Made by a program: the position numbers and the translations under genes. The notes under the pieces are model-generated. The model worked only from the letters and a program-made list of their open reading frames with translations, was not told the DNA's origin and searched no databases. Below, in pieces: positions 7,082 to 64,000 of a stretch of 64,000 nucleotides of DNA. Source of the DNA: Cyanidioschyzon merolae (taxonomy: Eukaryota); assembly GCA_000091205.1 (NCBI GenBank), contig AP006492.2; one strand, written 5' to 3'. Each line of letters opens with the position of its first letter. The first letter of the stretch is position 1.

Positions 7082-8758
7082 TTGCGAGCTTCAGTCAGCA
7101 CAGCAGCACAAGAAACGCAGCGTAGCGCGACGGGATCAACGGCTCGTGAGCGGCAGCGACGCGTCCTCGTGTGTCCATTGCCCGCGACAACTGGTGTGTG
7201 CGGGTGTTGGCGTCGACGCGCCCAAGGAGCGGGTACACGACACCTATGTGGAAAGTTGTTGAAAGCAGTCCTTTTGAGGTAATTGCGGACGCACCTGCTA
7301 CAGTTGGGGTCTCGTGCCAGTGTCAGGAACACACCAGCGTTTGGGAGATTCTTGTTTCTCCTTCCTATCTGGCTTTACAAAAACCGGTGTCTGGTACCTG
7401 TCGAGCCACGTAGTTCGCACTGGGAAGATGCTGCAGATGGGAACCTACAAGTCCCGATTCCGCCGCTTCTAGGTGTTGTCAACGCTTACCACGCACAAAT
7501 GCAAGCTACGGTCCACGCAGTGCTCGCCATCTCATCTTCTTTATCTACAGCTCTGGTGCGCCATTCGCAACGGTGACACTGACCTATAAGCAGGTGCTCC
7601 CATTCGTCCACCGAACCTCCTGCTCCTCCTCATCCGGATATCGTCTAGTCGTGTTTGAAGGCTTCCATGATGTTTCCGAATATGCCTCTAACGGGTGCAG
7701 AGGGCTTCCCGCGAGGCGCTCCTTCGATGGCGCCTATCGAGGATCCGCTCGGCGCCTATACCCTGTCCGATGCACCCGCAAGCGCTCGCTCTACCATTCG
7801 AAGGGGATTTGTGGAATGCGATATGGTCCTTGATGAAAGAATTATCGGAAGGAAAATCCAGACTGGAGAACACGAGTCGAGACGTTTGAACACGTCTAGG
7901 ATTCCATCGCTCAAAGCGCAGACGCACGCTCTACGGAAAGCGATCACTGTGCTGATGAGCGCTCGATTCCAAGACGCTTTCGATGCAAACAAAAAAGGCG
8001 AGGGCCTCTTACAGCTTGTTACGTGCTAGGCACCATGCCGCTGTCGGATGCAGATTCATCGACTGTCACAGAGGTGGATTTGTCTGTCGGACGGAAGTGA
8101 TGACTCGACGTGACGAATTCGGTGAACGCTCAGCATGAGCGTACGACCAGGTCGTCAAGAAGCGTCACCGAGTTTTCTCATGGTCGATCCAGCCGCGCGA
8201 ATTCCTGTGCCCTCGAATTACCTCGGAACAGAAAGATCGACACCTCGAAGAATGCATGATGTTAGCGTGTCACTCGCAACGACAGGACAAACATGGAGGC
8301 TCGGACGTATGACTGGATGATCCTATCGCATCATTTACGCGCGCGTGTTCGAGGTCGTCGTGAATCCTCGTAATCCCCATGACGTAAAGAATGCCAGGTG
8401 CAGTGCGTCGAAGCAGCGACTCCGAGAACACGTCTGAAAATCCTGTAACTGCCTTCGATTCCATAATCTTTCTCGCTGTACTTTGACTGTCGAGGCTGTA
8501 GATCGAGCAAAGTCCAGAAAAGGGATCAATAAGAACGAACACAGCACGTAACTCCATGTACTATGCTCAGCTAACGCGGATCTAGTGGGTAACACAAGTT
8601 CGATGCATCGATCCCGGATCTAGACTTGTTTGCAACTGCATGTACCGTCGACGCCATGAGCGTCGCGCATTGACACTGAGCAGCGCGTGGCGAACGCGAG
8701 GTCGCATCCCGAGATGCACCGCGATCACTCATGGGAATAAGCAAGGCGAATCGATAAT

Positions 8759-16469: not shown

Positions 16470-17512
16470 AAGACAGACGAAGACGAAGACGCCGCGCTGA
16501 GCGTGTGGATCGCCCGATGAAGCACACGGCAGCCGTCGCAGTACGTTTCAATCCACAGGACAGATCCAACGATCTGAACGAAAAGCAGATGAAGCTGCAT
16601 ACGTTCTTCAGGGCTCCGTGCGAGCGCGAGTCGAGCACCTTGATCGCCAGCGCGCATGCGAACGACTGAAACAGCGGCATCGCGACCAATCTCGACGCTC
16701 TGAATACCGCATCGAGCAGCTAATCACGCTTTGATCGCTTCACGCTGACACTTCGTGTACGTCCAAATGGCTCATGTGGACGTCCTTCGGCAGGCCGACA
16801 CGGAACCGCGTCCGAGTCGCCGACGTTTTCGGCTTTATGGAGACCGGCAACGGACTTTCGCCAACCCGGTCCATGAGTTGGAAAAAGCAAATCACCGAAA
16901 AGCCGTATGCACTGGTGGTAGCCTACGGCAATGCGCGTTCTGTGACGCCTGAAGACAGCGCTCGTTTTCGCTCGACGAGCGCGTGCAACCAGTGCAGACA
17001 TTGATGCCGCACGATTCCCATCAACGAATTCCGGGCTTCGACGTACGCACACCATGAGCACGGGTGCACGCTAGATCTGCCTGAGACACAGAGCATGGAA
17101 CAGAGCCGAATACAATGGATGCTGTATTGTGAACTGAACAAGCGTCAAATGGCGCAGTACCTGGAAAAGGAGACGCATCCTACGATGTGATTCCGCGAAG
17201 AGATGATGCGCGCAACCACGAGATGCACCGAAAGCTGAACGCCTCAATCAAGATCCGGAAGCATCTCGTGGTTTCGGAGGATTCAGCGGTATTCTGTGGA
17301 GCGACACTTGTGAGCGCATCGTTTTGTATACAGTATATGCATTGTGTTGGCACGTCGAAGACTTGCAGGGAGAAAAATCAGCCGTCATCCGGGCTGGCAT
17401 TGGACGCTTGCCTGGAGCAGCGCGCATCTATAATGGGGTCCAGCAAGCAGGCAAGCATGAATCGCCATATATACATTGGGAATGGTCTCCCTGCGTCATT
17501 GGTGAACGATAA
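16470..17512. repeat. Interspersed repeat family A, copy 1 (~1.04 kb). About 97% identical to 32103..33142, direct orientation.
   Basis: The ORF pairs are duplicated exactly or nearly so, for example 16755..16952 and 32386..32583, 17187.. and 32818... Sharp similarity boundaries at 'agacgaagacgaagacgccgcgctgagcgtgtgg' on the left and '...ggtgaacgataa' on the right. No recognisable protein domain. Confidence 0.8.
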
Positions 17513-30528: not shown

Positions 30529-32102
30529 CCAAAATCGGCCGATGCACGTCTGCCGTCAGCGGTGCATCCAGACAGCTGTGCAGTGCATCGAGTGTTGTCG
30601 TACGCATTGCCCGTCCGTCTCCCTATTATCGGCAGGTGCAGGGGCATGAGATACCGAGGTAAATACTGAACGAGTGTTCCGGATAGATGAACCTCAGGTC
30701 ATATGAGCGAACTGTATAAGGATACCGCCAGACTCGCCGGACGTGCAGACCCAGCAGGGGCAAGCGCCTCACCATGATTCCTCTCGTTGCACGTCGTCAG
30801 TCGCGTTCGGTCTCTGTGCGGCGAGCGCACCAGTGTTCTAGGCGTCGTCACGGGTACGGACAGCAGGCTCGGCACCTCGAGGATCGTGTGAACGAATCCG
30901 TTTCTTCGAAGGGCAGTATGGATGGTAGAGGCCGCTGGAGCTTGGCGGTATCGTGCAGAACGATAGATGCCTCCCGTAGATGCAGATCACTAGTGCACAG
31001 TTGGGGATCTCTGCTCAGTGTAAACGCTTCGTAGATACGAGAAGAGTAAAAGCTATATGAATGACTGTAGCCTTGTCAATCCATTCCAATGCATACATTC
31101 ATCACGAGATACTACCAAAGACGCCACAAACTGTGAATTCTGCGTACGCTTGATACATATGCCCATGCAGAGACATGCATGGACCATGACACAGGCATGC
31201 TTCAGTGCGAGACGCTCTCGCGCTGATCATCACGCACATGCTTTCGCACTGGAATGAGAATGCTTACCAAAGGAGCGACGGGTTCTCCTCTCGCTCAATG
31301 AGAATTTATTCGGAGGGCATGGTGAATCTGTGTAAGTGTACTCGAAGAATGACAAAACGCTTTTCGTAAGCAAGAAACAAGCGCGAATGACCATGTCATT
31401 TTCCTGATGCTAATGGATACTTGTGCTCGCCTACAGATCCCAAAACGGACAGGGTCGAAAAACACTTCATCCGGCGTCGGAGCACCCGTCATGGATTCCA
31501 GTTCCTACCTGGCTATGTCCTCTTTTTAGACTACGTCGCTTTCCATCACTTAATGGCTGTTAAAGAATACGCAGAGAAGATCGCCATTGAGCCGCTCTTC
31601 GTGCCACCAGGTTCTCTCCTGTTCAATCGAATCGTTGTTGTCTTTTCTGTTGCCTAATGCAGTTTTTACGCTCGCAAATTCATACGTATGTCGTTCGCGT
31701 CCGTTGAACCATTCTTCGATGAGTCGCCCTCTACCCTAGCCTTCACACCTCGTCCCGCAAATGTTCATATGAGTTCTCCAGATACAGGGCTACGAGCTAT
31801 CCGCGATTCTCTGTAATCCGTCGAGCAAACATTCGTTCGACGATACACATGATGCTCGCGACAGAGGACGCAACACTCCCTGGCCGTAGGATCAGAGATT
31901 CGAACACGTGCTTTCCAGAAAGTGTTGACGCGATGCCGCATCGCGTAGGCAGTTGAAAGAATGCTCGAGTCCAGGTTCTAGACAATATGAAACACACCTC
32001 AGTAACCAAAACGATACCGGAGTTGATCTCGAGCACTTCATGAAGCGCACCCCGTGGGCGTTGGGTCCCATCGCACAGGCCTAGGAAAACGGGGACGGAC
32101 GA

Positions 32103-33142
32103 GAGACACGAAGACGAAGACGCCGCGCTGAGCGTGTGGATCCCCCGATGAAGCACACGGTAGCCGTCGCAGTACGTTTCAATCCACAGGTCAGATCCAA
32201 CGACCTGAACGAAAAGCAGATGAAGCTGCATACGTTCTTCAGGGCTCCGTACGAGCGCGAGTCGGGCAGCTTGATCGCCAGCGCGCATGCGAACGACTGA
32301 AACAGCGGCATCACGGCCAATCTCGACGCTCTGAATACCGCATCGAGCAGCTAATCACGCTTTGATCGCTTCACGCTGACACTTCGTGTACGTCCAAATG
32401 GCTCATGTGGACGTCCTTCGGCAGGCCGACACGGAACCGCGTCCGAGTCGCCGAAGTTTTCGGCTTTATGGAGACCCGCAACGGACTTTCGCCAACCCGG
32501 TCCATGAGTTGGAAAAAGCAAATCACCGAAAAGCCGTATGCACTGGTGGTAGCCTACGGCAATGCGCGTTCTGTGACGCCTGAAGACAGCGCTCGTTTCC
32601 GCTCGACGAGCGCGTGCAACCAGTGCAGACATTGATGCCGCACGATTCCCATCAACGAATTCCGGGCTTCGACGTACGCACATCATGAGCACGGGTGCAC
32701 GCTAGATCTGCCTGAGACACAGAGCATGGAACAGAGCCGAATACAATGGATGCTGTATTGTGAACTGAACAAGCGTCAAATGGCGCAGTACCTGGAAAAG
32801 GAGACGCATCCTACGATGTGATTCCGCGAAGAGATGATGCGCGCAACCACGAGATGCACCGAAAGCTGAACGCCTCAATCAAGATCCGGAAGCATCTCGT
32901 GGTTTCGGAGGATTCAGCGGTATTCTGTGGAGCGACACTTGTGAGCGCATCGTTTTGTATACAGTATATGCATTGTGTTGGCACGTCGAAGACTTGCAGG
33001 GAGAAAAATCAGCCGTCATCCGGGCTGGCATTGGACGCTTGCCTGGAGCAGCGCGCTTCTATAATGGGGTCCAGCAAGCAGGCAAGCATGAATCGCCATA
33101 TATACATTGGGAATGGTCTCCCTGCGTCATTGGTGAACGATA
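32103..33142. repeat. Interspersed repeat family A, copy 2. It lies ~280 bp to the left of Fanzor-like element copy 1.
   Basis: See copy 1 at 16470..17512. About 97% identity over ~1.04 kb. Confidence 0.8.
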
Positions 33143-33432
33143 ATCGTGTCACGCTATACGCTTTCGCGGAATATCTCGTGGTGCACACCCTGCTTCGCCA
33201 ACAGCTGGCTCCATCTCGCTGCTGACTCGTGCGACCTTCGCGCCACCCCAATGCGATCTCCAGCTGCACAAACACATACACATACACACACTGGAACACC
33301 CGTTCCACACAGGTGTGCTGTCCGCAGACGCCGGCTGTCCGACTGCTACCGATGTGCTCGTATTCACCACCGTTCGTGCGATCTGCAGCGGACGGGGCGC
33401 TATATCATCGGGCATCGTCGATGAAATGTAGT

Positions 33433-33454
33433 GGCGGGCGGAAAACCGCCCGCC
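33433..33454 (-). ncRNA. Candidate omega-RNA scaffold 3' hairpin of Fanzor-like copy 1.
   Basis: The plus strand reads 'ggcgggcgg aaaa ccgcccgcc', a perfect 9-bp GC stem with a 4-nt loop. It abuts the nuclease stop codon at 33455-33457 and sits ~9 nt inside the element boundary. This matches the TnpB/Fanzor arrangement in which the omega-RNA overlaps the 3' end of the ORF and ends at the element edge. Confidence 0.35.
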
Positions 33455-35052
33455 CTACACGAAATGTCTCCCACTGACGTGCAGACGCCTCCCAGTCTTT
33501 TTGGACCGGCCGCCTACTAAGGGTTTCAACTTTTTCTCATATAATTCCACCTTGAGAGGTTCTTCCGCGAAATTCTCTCTGGTCAACTCTGGAGGTCTTC
33601 TTTCTATCACCGCGCACCTCCTTATATTGATAGCGGCGTTAAAGTCTTGGTTCACAAACTTCATACGTTTCTTGCTATTGATTGTACTTCCGGATGCACC
33701 TAGTCCAGAAACTTTCGCTTTCCTTCCCATGTGCTCTTCTGTTAGCGCTCCGTACTTTTGTATATCTTCAGGGCTCCTCTGGCACTTTTTCATCCCCATC
33801 CTCTGAAGTGTACATCCCAACTCATCGTGTATAGGCGATTTCCGGAACTCATCGATCGGTATCGTAACGAAACGCCTGCGCACTCCTTGTATGTTCTTGT
33901 TGACGGCGCTGGTTGACACGCTTTCTGGGTCATCCAGTGCCCTGATCCATACGCTACTAAAAGCCTCTTACTCTTATCTTCCTTTCAGGCGCTCAACTGA
34001 TTGAAGAAATCCGCGGTCGCCCGCTGCTTCCCACAGTATAGATTAACGCGCAGACGAGCCCACCGGGGCTTGGCGTACTCTTTCCACGGCGCTTCCCAGT
34101 CAGCAACACGGACTTTCGTGAATTTCAGAAAAGTTCGAAAGTCCGCTCCTCGGCTCGTCACCTCGCTCATAGCTTCCAGGTGCTCGTTCGCTCCTGCATT
34201 CCATGTCTCAACTTTCTTCCTTGCATTCTTTATGCCCGATTCTCGACAGTATCTTGCTCTCGAGAGCTTGAAAAGACGCATGTCTTTCTGACGCAAGTCA
34301 CCGTCACTGCCATCTTCTGCACGCTTCGGTGCTGCGACGGCTATATTCATCGTGTTTCCGGGGTCCACGCCGACGACAAAGTCACTCTCATGCACCTCCT
34401 GCGTCGCAGGATCCGCCTCTTTCTTTTCTTCGTGCTTCGTCAGGGGCGAAGCCGAAGGCACGATAGGACGATCCGCCTTCAACCGCCGACAGTGTGCACA
34501 CATGGACACTCCATCGGTTTCGATCGTGCCCGTGAATACCCTCTGCTTGCTCACTTTGCGACGTTTGAAATAGAAGATATTCTTCCAGTACGTCTCCCGG
34601 CTTTCACCGGTGAACTCCGTCTTCCTTCCATCGAACTGCGGACAGGTCTCCTCCATGACGCCGTAGAGGACTCTGGAGTCGATAATCACATAGTGCGACT
34701 TGATGCTGCACAGCGGAGCGACGTAGAAGCGCTTACCCAGAAGCGCGGCCTTCTGTCGCTCCGGCTCTTCATTTGCTTTCTGACTCGGCTCCATCTCCGC
34801 CTTGCGCTCGAGTTTTCGGTTCAGGAATCCGAAATAGCGCACAATGGGGCGATAACATCTTTCTTCATCTCTTTTCATATCTGGTACCTTTTCCGCTCGA
34901 TTCGCCAGCGCCAAGACTGCACGGTGCTCTTGAATAGCCGCACGGATTACAGAAGCTTCACTCAGGCACCGGCGTGACGTCTTCATGTCGACAAATTCGA
35001 TCTCCTGTACGTTCTGGCGATCGTTCGTGATGCCGTCGATGATGGCCCACAT
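33455..35052 (-). CDS. TnpB-like, Fanzor-type RuvC nuclease, copy 1. It is split into ORFs 35052..33985 and 33919..33455 in different frames. Either a 41-nt GT-AG intron (33957..33997) joins them or it is a frameshifted pseudogene.
   Basis: The N-terminal ORF of 355 aa contains RuvC-I 'VGVDPGNT'. The C-terminal ORF contains a candidate RuvC-II Glu in 'VTIPIDEF' and RuvC-III '[10 protein letters not shown]'. Splicing 'gttgag...ttttag' out of the minus strand joins '...ADFFN' to '[22 protein letters not shown]...' in frame. Confidence 0.6.
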
Positions 35053-35914
35053 CGCGCGGCGAGAGAGGCCGGGGGGTCCAGCGCAAACATGGCGCGTATC
35101 ATGAAGCGTTCGAGGTTCACGATCATATCGTTCTTCAGGTGCGTGAGGTGCTTGACTGCCCCGCTGGTGTAAACACGCAAGTCACCCCTGTATCGAGTAA
35201 CGTTGAAGCGGTATTCAGCATCATTTTTCATGCCGGGCATCCACTCGCTCATTTCGCCGCGACGTTTCCCCTATAGCAAGCATGAGGTGACGAGTAAAGG
35301 TCTTGTAGAAGGCACGTTCCGAAACCTCAGCTGTTTCCAAGTGCGTCACGTCGCGATACATCTCCCTCGTCATATGCATCGGTCCTCAAGAAGCCTTGCA
35401 AACACTCCCGGAGTTCGACTCGGCACGGTTTCTGATGGCATCTCGCAACTTTTCCCCGTGCGGAGCAGTAGTATGCTTAAGAAGACAGGCTCTCACCACC
35501 ATCTCGTCGTATCGCCGTCTTTCTTGCAGCCTTTATTGTCGGACCTCCCGCTTTTGCTCCTTCGTCCTCTCCTGTTCTTCTGAACTCGGCACCGTTTTTT
35601 GTTTTTTCTCTGCCGGCTGTCGACGCTGTGCCCCCTGGATCCTCCATTTCCTTTTCCATGACTTTCCTTTTTTACATGTTTGGAAATGAGACTTCTTTGA
35701 ACGCTTCTGCTACAAACCGCGAAAAATCACTTGAAAACAGTTACTTGAGGGTTAGTACACAACTGAGGTGAAGGACTGTACTCTGCTACGACTACAACGC
35801 AAATACGACCTGTACGGTAGAGTAACAAGAAAACGATTAGGAAAGATCGCGTTTCCCTTCAACGGCGAGATGCGCGTCGTATCTGCTGGCTACCAGGCAT
35901 GGAGGTGGGCGTAT

Positions 35915-36590
35915 CGAGCGCATTATTTAGAACAAAGAACAGAGACTAACAACTTACTAGCAACGATATAACGATTTCTATCCCCATCTACGATGAACAT
36001 TAAAAGGGGAAAACTTTCCGTATCTTCGGAAGTTTAACTTATGGGTGGAGGGTCCCGCAAGCCGGACTAGTCGTCAAGGCTAGTGCTTCGTGCTCTCCCT
36101 CGTGGAAGGCGCCATGATGAGAGCTGCACAGGTCGTCCAAAACGCAGTTTTTTCTGGGACTCGGAGAATGTATGCTGCGTCTGGGCACCGCCCCAGGTAG
36201 TAGTGGGCTTCTAGTATATCGCTTCGCGCTCTCGCAGGCAGAAGGCCTGCCTGCCCAGTTTCCAGGCTCCCGGAATGATAATCAGCCCTGAATCCGGGTC
36301 AAATGTACCATTCTTCGAGACGACGCCTTCACTGGTATGGCAAATCCGTTCTGTCGCTGTGCAGCATGCGCTCCAGCGGTTTAGGCGCTACGACGTGTGC
36401 TCAGTGTAGACACTCGGCGCACGATAGAGCATATGAAACGACCAGTATATCCGCGAGTAAGCTTGAGAAATGGAACTTGAAGATAGGTGCAGCATGATGG
36501 ACGCTTTCGCGAATGCCATCATCCATCCACTCCGAAATCTCGGATTTGTGGTCAATGTACACGCGTACCATCGATAAAAAATCAGCGGCA
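35915..36590. repeat. Diverged repeat family C, copy 1, about 70-75% identical to 59005..59680.
   Basis: Shared blocks include 'ctagcaac.agata...ctacgat.aac.tt.aaaggggaaa..tt' and 'gcgcacgat.gaacgtacagaacgaccagta.atccg.gag...ggaacttgaag...gatggacgctttc.cgaatg'. The minus-strand ORFs 36401..36697 and 59414..59668 share 'FKFH..LL.D.LVV.Y..SCA'. Confidence 0.55.
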
Positions 36591-37289
36591 TCCTCCGCTG
36601 GACACCGGCGGGAGCTGCCACGTGGCAGCACAAACGTGCGATTGCAAAGCATCCGTGTACCCGTGTCGCCGTCCGCGGCAGCGCCTCGGAGCAGCAATCA
36701 CCGCCACGAGCACACGGCGGTGGCTGCACGTGTGCGTGCGCTTCTATAACGCCCGATAGAGCATTCGAATTCGGCGTTCTACCGTAGTGCGCAGCACCGA
36801 GCGCTAGACACGTTACGGAGCTTTCTTCACTTTTGTTTCATCATGGTTTGGGACTATAAGCTGCTCGACTCTGTATCCGTCAGTCCACTTGACTGCATCT
36901 ACCAGTTTTTCTGCCTTCCCTGTGCGTGGGGTGAGTTGTACGCGGTCGACCAAGGAGAGCGCTGTCTTCAGCCGCAGTGCCTCATAGGCACCCTCATCGC
37001 CTTCGTGCCGGTTTTAAACTGCTTTTGCTTTGCAAACCGGCGCGCTGAGCAGATGGAACGTATGGGAATGTACGTTGACTATCTTGAGGTATGCGCTGTT
37101 ATTTGTGGTTTTCCCAGCGCTTGCTGCTTTGTGCACCAGGAGCGACTGCAGTACAATGGAACAGGTGCAGAGCCGAAGCTCATTCTCATGGAGTAATTTC
37201 GGTTGACGACATATGACAGGATTTCTGGTCTGTATCTCCACGATCTAGGTAACTGAAGTTTATATCTGCTCTGCAGGATCTACTTGAAC

Positions 37290-44934: not shown

Positions 44935-45754
44935 ACTCACAACGCGGATGATGCTTTCATCTGTTCTGGTTCACGAAGTCGTCCTCCCGTTGGCGACCGC
45001 ATGCATCCTCGAGTCATGGAATGATCGATTGGTACAGGATGTGCGGCAAGTCCAGTGGCGAGCGCATGACCCGTGCATCTGTGGTGTTGCGGGCACCCAG
45101 GAAACCGTGCAGTGCATGCGAACGTGTACCCATTGCAAGCACGTTCACGCGTCTTCATCACGATTCATGACATGTTATCAGCTGCAGTGAGATATCCTTT
45201 CTATCTCTCTCTCTCTCGCACTCTCACGCACGCTAGCATGTTTGCGGTAGCTTGCGGTGCCTGCATCGACGCATCGAATCAGAGCGGTGTGGTGTGTCTC
45301 TGCCCAAATTCCCCGTTTCCACCGCAGCGCTCAGAAAGAACACTTCGTATCGAGTCGAGCCTTGCGGCCGTTGCGCGCAACTGCGGAACCTCGTCGTTCA
45401 TCGGACCGCCTAGATCGGTTTCCGCAGCACGGCACCAGCTGAGCACCGGCTGAAACCTGCTCACACCTTCATTATCTTTCCGTGTGAATAGGAACGCATG
45501 GAATCCGTCTCTGCCCGCTGCTCTGGATGAATACGGCGACGCGACAGTTCGACGCATTTAACCAGGTATCACGGAGTGCGCGATGATTCTTGACACCTAC
45601 CAGAGCTTCCATCATTCCGTACCTGGCCTTCATGCTCCACCAATAACCATCACCCATAGTTCGTCTCGGGGATTCGGGTCCGCTCATACGATTCATGCAC
45701 GCGATAGTTGTCGGCATTGAGCGACACTGGGACGGGCGATGATGCTCAAGCAAT

Positions 45755-48639: not shown

Positions 48640-48693
48640 ACGCTGGGCTCAAGGCCTGGCTGTTTGTGATCAAGTTCCTGCGGCCCAAGACAC

Positions 48694-48715
48694 CGCACAC
48701 ACACACACACACACC
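48694..48715. repeat. (CA)n dinucleotide microsatellite. Others are (CT)n at ~45204-45217, (GCA)n at ~61801-61820, (TG)n at ~28336-28358 and ~40444-40459, and AGTC/AGAC runs at 24734-24768.
   Basis: Direct reading. Confidence 0.9.
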
Positions 48716-49234
48716 TCAACAGAGCAGCACGCGTGTAGCAGCAACGACGCGTTCGTGCAGTCCGTAAATCCGATGCTTTCACGATCCGCTGGAATGCGGC
48801 GTGGTGCAGCGCGCTCGCGGGATCGCACCCCGAGATCCTTTCAGCTCGACGCCGGTGCGTCGGGCTATCTTCCATAATTGGACAAAACCTTCCTAAAAGA
48901 TCAGGGATCCCCAACGGTGCGCGGTGAAGCACCGATCATACCACGCCCTATCTCCAAGGTCCATGGTCCATAATTCTTCTCGGATACATTGGTCACTTTG
49001 TACGTTCTATCGTGTGCCGCGTATCTGCATTCCTGCATCGGTGATCGCGCCTATAGCGCCGTTACGGTCATAGCAGAGAGACAGGACGACGTTGGCGTAC
49101 CCCAGAGGACGTCGGCTCGAGATGGTAAACTGATACCCAGGCGCAGATGCCTCTCAGCCTTTTTTGACCGTCAGACTGCCATCAATTTCAGTTTATTCAG
49201 GCACGCTTCGAGACTGTGAGGCTGCACGAAGCAA

Positions 49235-49490
49235 GAGGATCGCGCTAGCCCCGAGGGTCTCGTCTCCAGCACCGCACATCATTTGATATTGATAGCGGCG
49301 TTGAAGACTCGGTTCACGAACTCCATGCATGTATTGCCTCTGGTGGTGCTCGCCAATGGAAGGAGTCCTCAAACTAGTGCCCTCAGTGCCATTTGCTGCT
49401 CTGTCAGCTCTCCGTGCTTTTCTATCGTCGAAATGCTCCGCTGCATTCTCCCCATCCCGATCTTTGAATGGTACATCCCAGCTCATCCCT
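49235..49490 (-). pseudogene. Degenerate relic of the Fanzor/TnpB-like nuclease 3' region, the third copy, about 75% nucleotide identity.
   Basis: The minus strand encodes '...LASTTRGNTCMEFVNRVFNAAINIK*' against intact '...[29 protein letters not shown]'. The RuvC-III Asp is replaced by Val and a premature stop follows. Plus-strand 49275.. 'atattgatagcggcgttgaagactcggttcacgaact' aligns to 33625.. 'atattgatagcggcgttaaagtcttggttcacaaact'. Confidence 0.6.
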
Positions 49491-51307
49491 CAGACTTTTT
49501 TGAAAATGAACGCAATTCTTCATGCCATTAGGTGAGGATCTTCCCTAATGGAGAAGGATTCGTTCAAGGAAGATGTAATGTGCCACAGTGTGTCACTGTG
49601 TGCTGGGCGATTCAGCGATTCGGCCAGTGGAGCGGTCGATAATTTCCATGATAGAAAACACTTCTTCAGTGGGGTACAACAACGGAACGTACTACGGAAT
49701 GAAAAGCAGCTCTACCCAGATAGAATCGGCAAATGCTCGATCCCTGGGGAATATTGAAATACCATGTTGTTCAATAGAAGGACGTCTCAATACGTTAGGG
49801 AAACCCTTCAATAATTCGATAAAGTGGTTGGTGCTGTTGTATGCGCCTTTATTACGAGCGATAGCGAGGCCATCAAATGAATGCCCTGCAGCTAGAATAG
49901 ATGATGATGTCCTCGTCTTCTTCGATTTCGATCGTACATACATTGGGCCTCCTTTCCGAGAATACCAATATATGCTCCCACCGTTTCATCCGAAGCAAGC
50001 CTCATCGACTGAGGAAACAAACCAAAGTGCCTGTGCTTCATACCGATCGCGACGTCCCAGGAAAGCTGTGGTAGCGATTTCCGTAGACGATGGCCGTGCG
50101 TGAAACTGGATTTTTTGCCTGTTTCCAAGCTTTTACAGGACCAGATGAACAAGATGTCGAGCAACTGAGACGCCTGTGGCAAATGATACCGACAATTTCT
50201 CTTTCCATACGGTGATCAACGGGTCGCATTCTTCCATTGTCCATAAGCAGTCTTCGAGAATATCGGTTGTTTGCCGCAGAGTGCATATGCTTCTTTGTTT
50301 CAGTGTTCCTCAACCATCGGAGTACTTTGGTATAACTGACTTGAAGGAGAAACACAGTACTCGTTGCACTGTTCAATAAAGAATATATCCCACCGGCAAT
50401 TCGTCTACGATCTATACGGTACATTGCATCGTGATGTCGATCTCCTGCTACACACCCCAGCAGGTCTCCAGCAAATTGGGTTGGAAGACTAGACGAAGTG
50501 TACGCGGTGCTTTCATTGAGATTTTGCATGTTGCATCTGCGAGACAGGTATTCACTGGAGAGCGCAGTGCAACGAAACCTTGGGTTTCGCCGAAACTCCA
50601 GCGAAGACCGGGTACCATGTTTCGAGAGGACGCCTGGGAGTCCTGTGGTCGCGTGAGCAGGAACAGCTCGCCGGTCTGCTGTTGCTTTCGCAAACGTTTG
50701 GAAAACGGAATCGCGGGTGATCGGAAAGCCATGATTTTGGGCGAAGCAGGTTTTACGAGTTCAGTGCGTCCAGTAATCCAGCCACGGCGGTTGTGAGGAC
50801 CTGCCGCAACCCGCTCTGTTGTGGCAGCTATGACATAGACTTGGTGCCCACACTGTTCAGCAGCGTCTGGTGCATGATCCTGGCCAAAGCTCGCACGTGT
50901 CAGCGTTTCCGCCGAGGGCCATAGACGCTCGTGTCGCCAGCGTTTTCAGAGACAGTGTTCCGAGCGTTCGCGTGGCCTTACCTCGCAACCGAAAGGAAGC
51001 GTTTGTCTCCTAGAGTTCGGAATGCTGTTGTCTAAGGTGCGGCGTTTCAGAGTCAGAACACGGACGCGACGCCGCGGATGTTTCGCTGTCCACTCGGCCG
51101 GCTAGGGCGTTCGACGACGGCTCGGTTGCACGCTTGTTCTGAAGCTCTCTGTTTTTCAGCTGCGAGCTTCTTGGAGTTAGGTATCGCCTGCGAGAAGTGG
51201 TGCTTGCCTGAGGGTTCTTGGATCAGATAGATCGGGGGACGCATGCCGGTGCACTCGATGCAGACGGTGGTATTGAGGCGTTGAGCGCGAGAACGCCCAT
51301 TTTCCCT

Positions 51308-52408
51308 TTAAAGAAGAGATGCTAACGTCGCTCCCATTTGCTGTTCCGAGCAGCTCGTGATCACCGTTTTCGAAAAAATGGAATCGAAGCTTGCAGGAGT
51401 GTCCTCAACATCGCTTGCGGATGCGGGCGGCAACAGGGAATCCGACGTAGAATGCGCTCCTGTGCCTCGTGAGACGGGAGCGGGTTCATCCCGCTCGATT
51501 TGAAGGGGCTCGTCGTACAGTACCGCTTGGATAGCCTTGATGAGCGGTAGCTCTGGCTCCGGATGCGTCTGGCAGAGCATCTCGATATCACGTAGTTTTT
51601 CAAAATAGTAGGTTCGTTCTCTCTCGAGATTATCGATGGCAAGCTGCATTTCAGTAATTTTCTGAATCAGCTTGGACTCCTGTTCCCGCGCCAGGCCGTC
51701 TGCAGCATTAACGGCCGGCGGCTCCGTCTTGGTGCCTGGCGATGCAGTGCGCGGCTGAGCCGGGCTCGAGCAAGTCGTGGATTCCTGTGCGGGCGTGCCG
51801 CCACGGGGATGCGTCGTAGCGGAAGCCGCTCGATAGGCCTCCTCCCGCTGCGCCCGAATGTTGCTGTTAACCGCACCCGTGCATCGAAGCGTTCGCGCAG
51901 CGGGCGCATGAAGGCCAGCGGCAGTTTTTGGGCCCGATACAGGACGTCGCTTCATCGCAGCACCTACGGTTTCCCTGCTGACACCGGGCTTTTGTTCGTT
52001 GTACTTGCGGACAGCGGCTTCGCGTCGCTCCACGGCGTTGTAAGGCTGGCCGGCGTAGAAGCGATCGAACACTGCTTTGACCCACTGGAGAAACTCCAGG
52101 TTATCCTGCGCTCTTGCCTTAATGAGTCGCTCGACTTCGATGTGTTTTTCGATACCAACTTTATCCAAAACCGCTTGAAGCACCTTATAGTTCTGTACGT
52201 ACTCGTACTCATGCCGAGCGCTAAAGTTCACTTTATGCAGCGGTACCTTCCCGGGGAAGAGAGCGTCAAAAACCTGACAGTGCGCTGCACCATCTGCGAC
52301 TTGTTCAACTTTCGTGTAACTCAGTTTGAGAAAGTCGTTCAGCCACGATAAGAGTTCCCCCCGAGAAACAAAAAAAGCCCCAGACATGATGCCCACTGCC
52401 TCTGCCAT
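51308..52408 (-). CDS. EB1: EB1-family microtubule plus-end binding protein with CH domain and EB1 C-terminal coiled-coil.
   Basis: 'LSWLNDFLKLSYTKVEQVADGAAHCQVFDALFPGKVPLHKVNFSARHEYEYVQNYKVLQ' is the CH domain. 'DNLERERTYYFEKLRDIEMLCQ' is the EB1 homology domain. Confidence 0.85.
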   Translation of the reverse strand: MAEAVGIMSGAFFVSRGELLSWLNDFLKLSYTKVEQVADGAAHCQVFDALFPGKVPLHKVNFSARHEYEYVQNYKVLQAVLDKVGIEKHIEVERLIKARAQDNLEFLQWVKAVFDRFYAGQPYNAVERREAAVRKYNEQKPGVSRETVGAAMKRRPVSGPKTAAGLHAPAARTLRCTGAVNSNIRAQREEAYRAASATTHPRGGTPAQESTTCSSPAQPRTASPGTKTEPPAVNAADGLAREQESKLIQKITEMQLAIDNLERERTYYFEKLRDIEMLCQTHPEPELPLIKAIQAVLYDEPLQIERDEPAPVSRGTGAHSTSDSLLPPASASDVEDTPASFDSIFSKTVITSCSEQQMGATLASLL

Positions 52409-54223: not shown

Positions 54224-55962
54224 TCACCGCCTCGTCTGGAGATGGAGGATGCACTTTAGTATCGAGAATGATGCCGTGCACGCGACCTCGGGTGACACTC
54301 GCGAACGCCGTTCAAAAGTCGAAAGCAGTCGCCAGCGGTTTACAGTAGTGGCGGCGAACGCGCCCAAGACAAAACTTCTCCAACTGACGTGCAGACGCCT
54401 CCCAGCCTTTTTGGACCGGCCGCCTACTAAGGGTTTCAACTTTTTCTCATATAATTCCACCTTGAGAGGTTCTTCCGCGAAATTCTCTCTGGTCAACTCT
54501 GGAGGTCTTCTTTCTATCACCGCGCACCTCCTTACATTGATAGCGGCGTTAAAGTCTTGGTTCACAAACTTCATACGTTTCTTGCTATTGATTGTACTTC
54601 CGGATGCACCTAGTCCAGAAACTTTCGCTTTCCTTCCCATGTGCTCTTCTGTTAGCGCTCCGTACTTTTGTATATCTTCAGGGCTCCTCGGGCACTTTTC
54701 CATCTCCACCCTCTGAAGTGTACATCCCAACTCATCGTGTATAGGCGATTTCCGGAACTCATCGATCGGTATCGTAACGAAACGCCTGCGCACTCCTTGT
54801 ATGTTCTTGTTGACGGCGCTGGTTGACACGCTTTCTGGGTCATCCAGTGCCCTGATCCATACGCTACTAAAAGCCTCTTACTCTTATCTTCCTTTCAGGC
54901 GCTCAACTGATTGAAGAAATCCGCGGTCGCCCGCTGCTTCCCACAGTATAGATTAACGCGCAGACGAGCCCACCGGGGCTTGGCGTACTCTTTCCACGGC
55001 GCTTCCCAGTCAGCAACACGGACTTTCGTGAATTTCAGAAAAGTTCGAAAGTCCGCTCCTCGGCTCGTCACCTCGCTCATAGCTTCCAGGTGCTCGTTCG
55101 CTCCTGCATTCCATGTCTCAACTTTCTTCCTTGCATTCATTATGCCCGATTCTCGACAGTATCTTGCTCTCGAGAGCTTGAAAAGACGCATGTCTTTCTG
55201 ACGCAAGTCACCGTCACTGCCATCTTCTGCACGCTTCGGTGCTGCGACGGCTATATTCATCGTGTTTCCGGGGTCCACGCCAACGACAAAGTCACTCTCA
55301 TGCACGTTCTGTGTGGCAGGATCCGCCTCCTTCTCATCTTCATGCTTCGTCACGGGCGAAGCCGAAGGCACGATAGGACGATCCGCCTTCAACCGCCGAC
55401 AGTGTGCACACATGGACACTCCATCGGTTTCGATCGTGCCCGTGAATACCCTCTGCTTGCTCACTTTGCGACGTTTGAAATAGAAGATATTCTTCCAGTA
55501 CGTCTCCCGGCTTTCACCGGTGAACTCCGTCTTCCTTCCATCGAACTGCGGACAGGTCTCCTCCATGACGCCGTAGAGGACTCTGGAGTCGATAATCACA
55601 TAGTGCGACTTGATGCTGCACAGCGGAGCGACGTAGAAGCGCTTACCCAGAAGCGCGGCCTTCTGTCGCTCCGGCTCTTCATTTGCTTTCTGACTCGGCT
55701 CCATCTCCGCCTTGCGCTCGAGTTTTCGGTTCAGGAATCCGAAATAGCGCACAATGGGGCGATAACATCTTTCTTCATCTCTTTTCATATCTGGTACCTT
55801 TTCCGCTCGATTCGCCAGCGCCAAGACTGCACGGTGCTCTTGAATAGCCGCGCGGATTACAGAAGCTTCATTCAGGCACCGGCGTGACGTCTTCTTGTCG
55901 ACAAATTCGATCTCCTGTACGTTCTGGCGATCGTTCGTGATGCCGTCGATGATGGCCCACAT
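54224..55962 (-). CDS. TnpB-like, Fanzor-type RuvC nuclease, copy 2, with the same split-ORF structure and the same putative 41-nt intron at 54867..54907. The copy-1 stop codon is lost, so the ORF reads 50 codons through the element terminus into the flank.
   Basis: The ORFs 55962..54895 and 54829..54224 differ from copy 1 by a few residues: K for M at 23, N for S at 31, 'LTKHEEKK' becomes 'VTKHEDEK', E to N, K to M, and 'QRMGMKKCQ' becomes 'QRVEMEKCP'. '[14 protein letters not shown]' is retained. Confidence 0.6.
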
Positions 55963-56788
55963 CGCGCGGCGAGAGAGGCCGGGGGGTCCAGCGCAAACAT
56001 GGCGCGTATCATGAAGCGTTCGAGGTTCACGATCATATCGTTCTTCAGGTGCGTGAGGTGCTTGACTGCCCCGCTGGTGTAAACACGCAAGTCACCCCTG
56101 TATCGAGTAACGTTGAAGCGGTATGCAGCATCATTTTTCATGCCGGGCATCCACTCGCTCATTTCGCCGCGACGTTTCCCCTATAGCAAGCATGAGGTGA
56201 CGAGTAAAGGTCTTGTAGAAGGCACGTTCCGAAACCTCAGCTGTTTCCAAGTGCGTCACGTCGCGATACATCTCCCTCGTCATATGCATCGGTCCTCAAG
56301 AAGCCTTGCAAACACTCCCGGAGTTCGACTCGGCACGGTTTCTGATGGCATCTCGCAACTTTTCCCCGTGCGGAGCAGTAGTATGCTTAAGAAGACAGGC
56401 TCTCACCACCATCTCGTCGTATCGCCGTCTTTCTTGCAGCCTTTATTGTCGGACCTCCCGCTTTTGCTCCTTCGTCCTCTCCTGTTCTTCTGAACTCGGC
56501 ACCGTTTTTTGTTTTTTCTCTGCCGGCTGTCGACGCTGTGCCCCCAGGATCCTCCATTTCCTTTTCCATGACTTTCCTTTTTTACATATTTGGAAATGAG
56601 ACTTCTTTGACCGCTTCTGCTACAAACCGCGAAAAATCACTTGAAAACAGTTACTTGAGGGTTAGTACACAACTGAGGTGAAGGACTGTACTCTGCTACG
56701 ACTGCAACGCAAATACGACCTGTACGGTAGAGCAACAAGAAAACGATTAGGAAAGATCGCGTTTCCCTTCAACGGCGAGATGCGCGTC
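54343..56788 (-). mobile_element. Fanzor/TnpB-like element, copy 2 (~2.45 kb), 98-99% identical to copy 1 and in the same orientation 20.9 kb away.
   Basis: Collinear with 33425..35878 at a constant offset of 20910 nt across the gene. Indels occur only in the 3'-terminal ~40 nt. The flanking DNA is unrelated. Confidence 0.65.
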
Positions 56789-56946
56789 CCGTCTCATGCC
56801 CGCCAGGTATCCCGGGTGCGCCTAGAGTGCGCGCCGCGTGCGCCACCGCAAGCGTTACAAATCGAAACACGCGCCGCAGCGCCAACGAACGCGCCATGCT
56901 TCATGCTTAGCGTTTTCGGGGGCTCACGTACTAGACGCCGCACAGT

Positions 56947-59004: not shown

Positions 59005-59680
59005 ATCTATCGAAAGAACAGAAATCAAAAACTGATTAGCAACAAGATAAGAAATGCTTTCCACCTCTACGATAACCGTTGAAAGGGGAAAGATTTCTGT
59101 AGTTTCGAAAGTTTGGCTTCTAGGCGCAAGGTCATGCGAGCCGGACGAGTCTGCGGGGCTAGCGTTTCATGCTTCCCCCAGCGGCACTCGCTGAGGCGAC
59201 ATCAGATCAGCACATCCGCAACGCCGTTCATTCTGGCATCACAAGTCGTTGGAATGCGTCTGGGCGTCGCCCTGGTCGCAGTGGCTTCCTAGCATTCCGC
59301 TTAGTGTCGCCACAGGCAGTAAGTCGATCTGCGGAGCTTGCAAGCCCCCATAATGATTATGTTACTCGGACCCCGTGTCGAATGAACCACGTCTCGAGTC
59401 GACGCCCTCAGTGTCATGGCAAAGCCGTTCTGTCTCCGTGCTGCATCCGCACGATCAGTATTGAGGCGCTCCTACGGGTGCTCATGGCAAGTTTGGCGCA
59501 CGATGGAACGTACAGAACGACCAGTACATCCGAGAGCAGGTCATGGAACTTGAAGGTGCTGTTCAGCGTGATGGACGCTTTCCCGAATGTCAATTTCCAT
59601 CCCGCAATCTGGGATCCATGGTATATGTACTGAACCTGTAAAACCAAAAAGACTGGAATCAGTCGCAACGATGACTCAAA
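59005..59680. repeat. Diverged repeat family C, copy 2.
   Basis: See 35915..36590. Confidence 0.55.
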
Positions 59681-60279
59681 CCCGATTCCATGATCTTTCT
59701 ACATGCGAACAGAAGAAATGGGAGCCGCTGGAGACGTATCTCATAAACGGTACCATGGTACTGTCGAATCAAGTTCCTTCAACCACCAAAACCAGAGGAG
59801 GATTTATCTTTCGAGCTGACTCAGTTATTTCAAATAACCACTTTGGTAAAGTTTCTGCGTGAGCTCAAGAAGAGGCCATCAAAGGACGACATCCGATTTC
59901 TTTCCTCGTCTATCCAGGATCGCGTATGGCTTCGCCCACCAGTTGCCTTGAAACAAAAAGGTCGACAAATGAATGAATCCGACATTTGAGCACACTACAC
60001 ATATGGTAAGGAGAAGAACGGAGGCTTGCACGTATGCATTGGATAATATCATTGATTATTTTTCGAAAAACTGTACGAGTCCATCGAGAATCATCTCAAC
60101 TCCACTGACGTAAAGAAATCCATCGGCGACTCGTCGAAGCAGGCACTCTCCGAAATCACAACCGAGAATCCGAAACCCAGGGATGCAATCGAAATCCCGG
60201 ATCGCTGCAACACGCATCTCCATGCTGTACATCTTGCGAACAACTTAGAATGAATTGAACGATTATACCAGAGCAGCCG

Positions 60280-63235: not shown

Positions 63236-63751
63236 ATGCAGTGCCCTAGCATCACGTGCTTCTTCAGGGCAATCCATTTGACAAGTACTGTGACTTGTTT
63301 TACAAGCAAGCGCACGCACTTTCATTCGATAAATGATTTTTGGGGCGCCAGCTTACCCGCGATGCAGCGAGCACCGAAACGAAAATCCAGATTTCAAACC
63401 GAGTCCAGCGATTCCGATCCCTCTACGCTCCCTTTGTGGAAAGCGGTGACGCGAGCTCCAAAAAAAGATGTTGCTGCGATGATGGAAATTCGAGCCCAAG
63501 ACGATTTCCTGCTAGAGCTGCGTCGGAAGCCTCTGGACGCACGTTCCGCGAGAGATGTGGTGCTGCAGTCGAATGCAGTTGCATCCATGACTGCAAAGCG
63601 AGGAAGATTTGTCACGACAAGATCGGTGAATCTTCGGCATGAGCTTATGCGGAAGTTGTCAAGCGACGACGCTGAGCTTTTTGTTGTCAATCCAGCGGCT
63701 CGACATGCTGTGCCCAAGAGTTGCCTTGAACCAGACGGATTGAATACTTGA
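63236..63751 (+). CDS. Hypothetical protein of 171 aa with no recognised domain.
   Basis: ORF only. Confidence 0.2.
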   Translation: MQCPSITCFFRAIHLTSTVTCFTSKRTHFHSINDFWGASLPAMQRAPKRKSRFQTESSDSDPSTLPLWKAVTRAPKKDVAAMMEIRAQDDFLLELRRKPLDARSARDVVLQSNAVASMTAKRGRFVTTRSVNLRHELMRKLSSDDAELFVVNPAARHAVPKSCLEPDGLNT

Positions 63752-64000
63752 AGAATGCATAGTTTTAGCACACTACGCATAAGAAAACGATAATCTAGGA
63801 GGTTTCTACTTTTGCATCGGATAATGCAATGGGTTAATTTACGAGCCCTTGCTCGAGTGCGTCGCGAATCATCTTGACACCGGTGACGTAACGAATGCCA
63901 GCGGCAGACAGTCGAGGGCGCCACTCCGAAAACACGACCGAGAACCCTAAATCGACTAGTGAACCCCTGCATCCTTTTTGCTGCGTTTGGAATGTCGAGC

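Follow-up and report, generated by a model that had tools for sequence, protein, structure and literature searches.

The intergenic region between the 3ʹ end of an EB1-like gene and the start of a geranylgeranyl reductase-like gene in Cyanidioschyzon merolae contains a decayed piece of a Fanzor1 nuclease gene, found within a 64,000-nucleotide stretch of contig AP006492.2 (assembly GCA_000091205.1) that is hereafter called the window. The EB1-like gene (51308–52408) specifies a 366-aa protein identical to BAM80282.1. The Fanzor piece belongs to an ancient repeat unit of ~1.38 kb (49113–50490, minus strand), delimited by co-linearity with sister loci and by nhmmer, in which a 5ʹ leader is followed by the remnant of a transposase gene and then by the remnant of a Fanzor 3ʹ end. 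The Fanzor1 family of this organism, CMe-1A, was described in 2013 by Bao and Jurka, who reported ~150 copies that individually match a ~3-kb consensus at ~80% identity (PMC3627910). The family was reported to lack inverted repeats, its classification was given as unknown, and its 5ʹ 635 bp correspond to the repeat TE-N2_CMe (PMC3627910). Because CMe-1A is documented in the C. merolae 10D genome, old and dead Fanzor debris is to be expected in the window. The same ~150 decayed copies agree with an earlier reading of the window, made from its letters alone and called here the original prediction, in its claim that the family has long been resident in the genome.

The analysis covers the window as the sample of C. 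merolae DNA, together with ~85 metagenome loci. Two larger CMe-1A elements in the window, located with blastn and nhmmer on the minus strand, serve as references: copy 1 (33414–36637), which at ~3.2 kb is full length and includes the 5ʹ module, and copy 2 (54313–56841), which lacks the ~670-bp 5ʹ module. The DNA profile of the family used with nhmmer was built from 26 members, and the CMe-1A consensus used for comparison was rebuilt from 73 metagenome copies and is not the Repbase consensus. A scan of metagenome contigs for the family yielded 79 loci, and contigs nearly identical to the window (99.4–99.7%) are also present in metagenomes.

The Fanzor1-derived pseudogene fragment lies at 49139–49486 on the minus strand and corresponds to the last ~115 codons of Fanzor1, beginning beyond the RuvC-II Glu and extending through a degenerate zinc-finger region and the RuvC-III block nearly to the stop codon. 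When the window is compared with itself by blastn, 49256–49487 aligns with 33594–33826 in copy 1 at 69.9% identity over 236 bp (E 4.2e-18), and the identity of the fragment to copy 2 is 68.6%. An nhmmer search with copy 1 as the query returns a single match in the 48–52 kb region, which pairs 49130–49488 with 33468–33827 and includes one 1-nt indel (E 9.7e-34); the runner-up there reaches only E 2.7. The family profile places the fragment at 49486–49139 (profile positions 2195–2546, E 3.1e-51), and tblastn with family proteins, for which 118–120 C-terminal and 7 long proteins were used, finds it to be 39–60% identical. These E-values rule out chance similarity to Fanzor, and the similarity spans ~347 bases rather than a chance patch of fewer than 60 nt. 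The original prediction, which had placed a decayed third copy of the 3ʹ part of the nuclease gene at 49235–49490, was therefore right about the homology. Towards lower coordinates, the similarity exceeds the predicted boundary by ~100 bp, reaching ~49139 and perhaps ~49113, and the predicted identity of ~75% was too high, the value being 63.7% to copy 1 over 347 aligned bases and ~70% in the core.

The fragment is incapable of encoding a nuclease. Over ~120 codons its frame is interrupted by three in-frame stops and shifted once by a 1-nt deletion. At 49306–49308 the RuvC-III codon is GTC (Val), where the family has GAC for the catalytic Asp of the ‘RD’ motif, such that a single A-to-T change makes the motif read RV. 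Directly after NAAINIK, at 49279–49281, an in-frame TGA replaces the AGA (Arg) of the family. Both peptides quoted in the original prediction were correctly read, the substitution and the stop are present as it described, and its view of the fragment as old, dead and Fanzor-derived is supported. What a Fanzor1/TnpB gene would additionally possess is missing: the fragment has the C-terminal homology, but no open reading frame (ORF) and no complete RuvC active site, since it starts past the RuvC-II Glu at profile position 2195 and has Val in place of the RuvC-III Asp. Sister copies of the unit, described below, retain this Asp (L026/L038 and L084), and two of them keep RDFNAAINI intact (L026 and L084); the codon equivalent to the TGA is CGA in L026 and AGA in L084. 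Both changes are thus private, incidental mutations of the window copy. No message can be read from the mutated Asp, since the remainder of the enzyme is missing from the fragment and a single dead copy carries the change. Nor do the substitution and the stop bear on an inactivation event of the nuclease, given that within the unit the fragment at no time possessed the other two catalytic residues.

The remainder of the Fanzor gene was not found beside the fragment. RuvC-I and RuvC-II sequences were absent from 49.5–51.3 kb in nhmmer searches with copy 1 and the family profile and in tblastn searches. The same interval yielded nothing of the gene with nhmmer at maximum sensitivity (copy 1 or the 26-member profile), with tblastn using 7 long and 120 C-terminal proteins, or when a profile of the adjacent region was compared with full elements. 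An hhalign comparison of a 191-aa ORF from sister locus L084 with the Fanzor alignment gave a probability of 0.2%. The original prediction had noted that this region is lower in G+C, which is correct (0.49 and 0.52 at 49–51 kb, against ~0.56), and had suggested that 49.5–51.0 kb might be the rest of the decayed element. That suggestion survives in part: 49.5–50.49 kb does belong to the same unit as the fragment, but it is not Fanzor-like, and 50.49–51.0 kb lies outside the unit.

Directly upstream of the fragment lies a decayed transposase gene of the IS630/Tc1/mariner type (Pfam DDE_3), occupying 49500–50490 on the minus strand and recognized from Pfam matches, relatives of its ORFs and its translations. 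The remnant retains a helix-turn-helix (HTH) region followed by the motifs VDEACFG, YWYSRKG, AYNSTNHF and FIP*YVPLLYPTEEVFS, an order that by its sequence matches the pattern of IS630/Tc1/mariner transposases, and it contains four or more in-frame stops as well as two or more frameshifts. A stitched majority consensus of four copies matches DDE_3 (PF13358) with E 1.4e-16 and 61 bits over profile positions 4–137 of 146, where the curated cut-off is 28.6 bits. Natural sequences match the same family: a single-frame stretch of L054 gives E 1.9e-5 and the 191-aa ORF of L084 gives E 6.5e-3, and the stitched translation of the window's own copy also gives E 1.9e-5. In addition, a natural 83-aa ORF at 49695–49943 has 20 relatives among 1.84 billion proteins, of which P0252 and P0253 score 32.6 and 33.1 bits and so exceed the DDE_3 cut-off. 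The four-copy consensus also produces weak matches to HTH_Tnp_Tc3_2 (1.4e-3) and HTH_33 (4e-3), such that the unit carries both a DDE_3-type transposase domain and an N-terminal helix-turn-helix. The spacing from the second Asp to the Glu would be 34 residues in the consensus, which is Tc1-like (DD34E-like), although this value can only be inferred, the four copies now having N, H, I or G in place of the second Asp. A search of PDB sequences with the reconstructed transposase produced irrelevant weak matches only.

The transposase and Fanzor remnants recur together at other loci. The segment 49497–50520 is homologous to sequences at L026/L038 and L054 (E 1e-119 to 1e-129), where the 1-kb part again lies beside a Fanzor 3ʹ fragment, co-linear and at 66–67% identity. 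A search with the sister fragments led to P0249 and to locus L084/L085, adjoining an FBPase gene, where positions 2050–3423 of L084 align with 50491–49116 of the window in a single nhmmer match (E 4.9e-191). Relatives of the ORF in the 1-kb part of the window led to L088/L089, adjoining a UBD-domain gene, where the whole unit is present (unit profile positions 9–1375), and to L087, which is the same sequence as L054. The unit is thus represented by five independent copies, one in the window and four at metagenome loci, that are 64–71% identical to one another over ~1.37 kb. Their mean pairwise identity is mostly 0.6–0.8 within the unit and drops to ~0.35 beyond the limits at 50490 and ~49115, and the Fanzor fragment makes up its 3ʹ quarter. 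The genes that flank the unit in the window occur at none of the sister loci, and the possibility that these loci are orthologues was rejected because their neighbours differ and their flanking genes show no similarity.

Both ends of the unit resemble sequences internal to CMe-1A. The first ~90 bp are homologous to the CMe-1A leader just upstream of the Fanzor start, and the 3ʹ remnant is the Fanzor fragment. In several copies the 5ʹ start of the unit reads TA and then (C/T)AGTCTTTCAAC. The CMe-1A 5ʹ end shows no similarity to the 5ʹ end of the unit, and a resemblance of the latter to a TTGAAAGGC motif near the CMe-1A 3ʹ end, noticed by eye, was judged too weak. Abutting the unit's 3ʹ end in the opposite orientation is a separate neighbour, a fragment of the CMe-1A 5ʹ module and hence probably of TE-N2_CMe (48926–49127, plus strand; positions 128–330 of the 5ʹ-module profile, nhmmer E 1.8e-30).

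The fragment is related to CMe-1A, yet it is not a strict member of this family. It is 68.0% identical to the CMe-1A consensus, whereas the 73 sampled members are 84–93% identical to it. In place of a ~3-kb element that is ~80% identical to the consensus and begins with the 635 bp of TE-N2_CMe, only profile positions 2195–2546 are represented, and the 1 kb beside them has no relation to the family. Of the sites that distinguish copy 1 from the consensus, 27 have the consensus letter in the fragment and 12 have the letter of copy 1, and therefore it is not descended from a copy-1 type element. The fragments in the window, L026 and L054 also share many characters that are absent from the CMe-1A consensus, including a 3-nt deletion and the peptide QQMALRA, where CMe-1A has EQMERRA. 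The description of the fragment as a decayed third copy of the 2.4-kb element consequently cannot stand, given its lower identity, its position in a separate clade and its union with a DDE_3 gene.

Traces of former coding capacity are visible in this divergence. Differences between the fragment and the consensus amount to 27/29/40% at codon positions 1/2/3, compared with 8/8/17% for ORF-bearing members, a pattern that fits some divergence, of modest extent, while the sequence was constrained by coding, and a larger neutral part afterwards. Between the unit consensus and that of CMe-1A the differences are 29/25/40% at the three positions (p 0.04), a bias that may likewise reflect an earlier coding history. 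Among the five unit copies themselves, differences are equal over the three codon positions, in the transposase and Fanzor parts alike, so that no coding constraint on the Fanzor piece within the unit is detected, and identity is roughly even along the unit. Equal codon positions and even identity are as predicted by neutral decay after insertion. The window copy is dead and without coding capacity, and the Asp-to-Val change is one of many random substitutions. Pairwise Kimura two-parameter (K2P) distances are 0.37–0.49 among the unit copies and 0.011 between copies 1 and 2; if the clock were uniform, the unit would have spread ~30–40 times longer ago than those two copies separated.

The five copies fall into two variants that differ in which part of Fanzor is missing. 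In variant A (the window and L084), Fanzor homology starts at profile position 2195 in both copies, and 2195–2546 is kept. Variant B (L026, L054 and L088) keeps a piece that begins at position 247 and ends between 353 and 454, plus 2297–2298 to ~2546. The 247–454 piece is the start of the Fanzor ORF, as can be seen from L088, which reads MDMEVEDP where copy 1 reads MEKEMEDP (E 5e-15). The transposase gene of the unit therefore sits between the leader and the Fanzor start, two segments that are contiguous in CMe-1A (profile positions ~153–242 and 247 onward).

We consider it probable that the ~1.38-kb unit is a dead copy of an ancient composite DNA transposon from the Cyanidioschyzon lineage, and that 49139–49486 is what remains of Fanzor at its 3ʹ end. 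The ancestor would have carried, in one orientation, the leader, a DDE_3 transposase of the IS630/Tc1/mariner type and a complete Fanzor1 related to, but distinct from, that of today's CMe-1A. Separate internal deletions within Fanzor (247–2194 in one case and 455–2296 in the other) may then have created at least two derivatives, the predecessors of variants A and B. Each variant presumably reached more than one site, most plausibly by transposition, and all copies would afterwards have decayed neutrally.

A second pair of relics in the window has a similar layout. A very decayed DDE_3-like transposase relic (31268–31652, plus strand; tblastn E 1e-5 for 31493–31651, nhmmer E 1.7e-3) lies upstream of a Fanzor relic at 32157–32782 on the same strand, the order also seen in the unit at 49.1–50.5 kb. 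The latter relic and another at 16559–17151, also on the plus strand, are older Fanzor remnants (tblastn 31–46% identity; nhmmer E 5e-12 for 16559–17151 and 2e-9 for 32157–32782) that cover RuvC-I to the region before the zinc finger. They reside within a 1042-bp repeat pair (16471–17512 and 32102–33143) that is 98.5% identical. The fragment at 49 kb is thus not the only relic beside the two larger copies.

Several observations weigh against a composite ancestor of this kind. A complete composite copy, with a transposase and a full Fanzor, was recovered neither from the window nor from the ~85 metagenome loci, and the proposed ancestor is deduced from the pair of deletion variants, together with the second, weak pair of relics. 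Four of the five unit copies come from metagenome contigs, with C. merolae itself represented by 64 kb, and the consensus protein that gives the best Pfam score was assembled from frames joined by eye. Comparison of the first with the reverse-complemented last 150–200 nt of the consensus and of three copies revealed no terminal inverted repeats, only chance matches of 7–9 nt. A TA or a one-step variant precedes the 5ʹ end of the unit in most copies, but the 3ʹ flanks are inconsistent and the copies are heavily decayed. Finally, the unit stops ~100 bp short of the 3ʹ end of CMe-1A and begins within CMe-1A sequence, and the termini of the ancestral element may have differed from these limits. 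Classification of the element as Tc1-type is accordingly a lead rather than a result, because neither inverted repeats nor a complete composite were found and the TA at the 5ʹ end is not consistently matched in the 3ʹ flanks.

A bolder extension of the composite reading is that CMe-1A itself descends from an IS630/Tc1/mariner-type composite, such that CMe-1A and the unit are reciprocal deletion derivatives, the former with Fanzor but no transposase and the latter with the transposase but Fanzor deleted, and that the Fanzor-deleted ones reached several new sites. We advance this extension tentatively, and rate its chances somewhat lower than those of its being wrong. If it is true, the unit would provide natural evidence that the Fanzor nuclease is dispensable for transposition of its host element.

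The alternative that fares best is that the junctions record an insertion rather than deletions. An independent Tc1/IS630-like transposon could have entered the Fanzor leader, and the chimera or pieces of it could have been copied later, in which case the transposase was never native to the element. Such an event would place the transposase gene just where it lies, exactly between the leader and the Fanzor start, which adjoin each other in CMe-1A, and the 5ʹ TA with its adjoining (C/T)AGTCTTTCAAC recalls a Tc1-type end. However, an inverted copy of that end was found neither past the transposase gene nor where the unit ends on its 3ʹ side, and the homology among the five copies runs on through the Fanzor pieces to a common 3ʹ end, and therefore the moving entity appears to have been the composite. 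Moreover, Fanzor1 together with a transposase within Mariner/Tc1 elements is documented in other taxa (PMC3627910; PMC10530073). On this balance, we regard a nested insertion as unlikely.

Far less probable is that the fragment is simply a 5ʹ-truncated, decayed CMe-1A copy whose remainder has decayed beyond recognition in 49.5–51.0 kb. The fragment is homologous to the 3ʹ part of both larger copies, the family is old and has many decayed copies (PMC3627910), and other 3ʹ-end fragments of the family exist in related contigs. Against this simple history, the adjoining 1 kb is about as well conserved as the Fanzor part among the five copies (64–71%), yet it has no similarity to CMe-1A at the level of DNA, protein or profile and encodes a DDE_3 transposase. 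The Fanzor junction also falls at the identical profile position in the window and L084, derived characters are shared with the sister fragments, and the diagnostic sites favour the consensus over copy 1 by 27 to 12.

Lastly, it is scarcely credible that the fragment is kept for a function, either as a stand-alone guide-RNA (omega/fRNA-like) locus served in trans or as a regulatory element ~500 bp upstream of the geranylgeranyl reductase-like gene. In favour of a function, the fragment retains the 3ʹ end of the gene, where, together with the sequence beyond, TnpB/Fanzor systems encode their guide RNA (PMC10530073); conservation is highest in the NAAINI block and the last ~30 nt (CGGTCAAAAAAGGCTGAGAGGCATCTGC); and the RNA fold z-score is -2.3. 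That score is weak, however (4 of 200 shuffles fold as well), and the unit has decayed roughly evenly along its length and to an equal degree at the three codon positions. Essentially no consensus structure (-0.03 to -1.8 kcal/mol) emerges when RNAalifold is applied to 73 3ʹ ends of the family, and the fragment has no Rfam match. The conserved ~90-nt non-coding tail that follows the CMe-1A stop codon, into which a guide RNA would be expected to extend, judging by what is reported for Fanzor guide RNAs (PMC10530073), is missing from the unit, and both larger Fanzor copies in the window are pseudogenes. The fragment would then be neutral debris with no sign of a present function, as the composite reading proposes.

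The two larger copies deserve comment because the original prediction had taken them to be young and intact. They are 98.7% identical to each other by blastn, but both share a nonsense codon, TGA for Leu near 33985 (SA*KED, where the family has SALKED), together with a 1-nt deletion near 33877 and insertions of +1 and +2 near 35222 and 35076. In the family, KECARRF continues in the SALKED frame, and it is here that the frame changes in copies 1 and 2. Because these lesions are shared, the copies must have been duplicated after inactivation. Annotators should therefore be cautious with the near-identical ‘intact’ Fanzor copies of this window, which are pseudogenes.

Continuous family ORFs do exist elsewhere, at 558–593 aa (P0131, P0133 and P0143), and full-length family elements cover ~3.18 kb when aligned to copy 1. 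Protein clusters related to copy 1 number 120 for its C-terminal ORF, all of them metagenomic, and 199 for its central ORF; the final protein search for relic-type Fanzor ORFs yielded only three clusters. A Pfam scan of the Fanzor ORFs and the full-length family proteins matched no family, and precomputed database annotation assigns PF26935 to many of the family proteins. The published Fanzor motif is D-X-[TS][TS]-X-X-zinc finger-X-RD (PMC3627910). In the CMe-1A proteins (P0131, P0133, P0143 and the copy 1 ORFs), the zinc-finger region has two Cys and two His rather than the C4 finger of that motif, and copies 1 and 2 have QD rather than RD ahead of FNAAINI.

Other structural features of CMe-1A were also encountered. 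Fragments of ~480–530 bp from its 3ʹ end, which start at a nearly identical position, are frequent in related metagenome contigs, where head-to-head inverted partial duplications are the other frequent form, and in many CMe-1A copies the Lys/Glu-rich part of the ORF is expanded by ~300 bp that include a repeated 75-bp segment. Metagenome loci with those forms or expansions are L058, L055, L074, L071, L068, L051, L032/L037 and L063/L073. Just past the stop codon, copy 1 has at its 3ʹ end a perfect 9-bp stem with a 4-nt loop (33432–33454; GGCGGGCGG AAAA CCGCCCGCC). The hairpin at the corresponding site of the family consensus is weaker (GGGCGCG TTTC TCGCC), and the last ~60 nt agree with that consensus in copy 2 but not in copy 1. 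The CMe-1A 5ʹ module, probably TE-N2_CMe, also occurs in the window on its own, as a solo copy at 59007–59629 (minus strand, nhmmer E 3e-148) and, besides the one abutting the unit (E 2e-30 in this search), as fragments at 30804–31033 (minus, E 2e-14) and 45558–45722 (plus, E 2e-6).

The window contains further repeats. The pairs 28168–29375/40274–41477 and 27972–28257/39996–40281 are 98.3–98.7% identical, which is about the same divergence as that of the two larger Fanzor copies and of the 16.5/32.1-kb pair. Such similar divergences suggest one duplication period or several families active simultaneously. The segments 8119–8444, 59934–60175 and 63623–63951 are ~68–69% identical to one another (blastn E 1e-18 to 2e-23) and represent another old repeat family. 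Additionally, TG/CA microsatellites are present at ~48690–48740 and 33230–33300, appearing as CVCVCV or THTHTH runs in translations, and one of them lies upstream of the geranylgeranyl reductase-like gene, between this gene and the transposon debris.

That C. merolae carries decayed Fanzor copies has been known since 2013 (PMC3627910). What is new is that Fanzor sequence of C. merolae is linked to a DDE_3 transposase, and that derivatives with Fanzor deleted exist and seem to have spread. The locus is an ordinary genomic fossil, and the gain is a corrected anatomy, that of a transposase-plus-Fanzor composite. This anatomy offers a concrete, testable clue as to which superfamily the unclassified CMe-1A belongs to, gives a hint of how that family originated and provides an example of derivatives that lost Fanzor yet appear to have spread on.

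Among known systems, CMe-1A is the closest. It resides in the same genome, the fragment resembles the last ~350 bp of its Fanzor ORF, the ~90-bp leader of the unit and the Fanzor start of variant B match it, and both elements are old, heavily decayed and without recognizable inverted repeats. The two differ in that the fragment is less similar to the consensus than any sampled member and forms a separate clade with its own derived characters. Moreover, the unit has a DDE_3 transposase gene, which CMe-1A lacks, whereas it is missing a 5ʹ module like TE-N2_CMe, the body of Fanzor and a 3ʹ tail of ~90 nt. Compared with TnpB and Fanzor RuvC nucleases in general, the fragment spans the part from beyond the RuvC-II Glu to the RD-x-NAAxNI block, but it is without RuvC-I and RuvC-II, has Val as its RuvC-III Asp and is broken in frame.

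Fanzor1 genes are also known from Mariner/Tc1 transposons that carry a transposase, for instance PGv-1 and PUl-1 (PMC3627910), and Mariner/Tc1 associations were reported by Jiang et al. in 2023 (PMC10530073). The unit resembles these elements in combining an IS630/Tc1/mariner transposase and Fanzor1 in one mobile unit, and in having deletion derivatives that keep one gene or the other. Those elements possess inverted repeats, TA duplications and a complete Fanzor, none of which is detectable here, where Fanzor is reduced to its ends and all copies seen are dead. The unit may also be compared with the internal-deletion derivatives of DNA transposons, since variants A and B share both ends and differ in the missing segment (247–2194 or 455–2296). 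Classical derivatives of this kind lose the transposase and keep their inverted repeats, whereas the unit keeps its transposase and loses its passenger, Fanzor.

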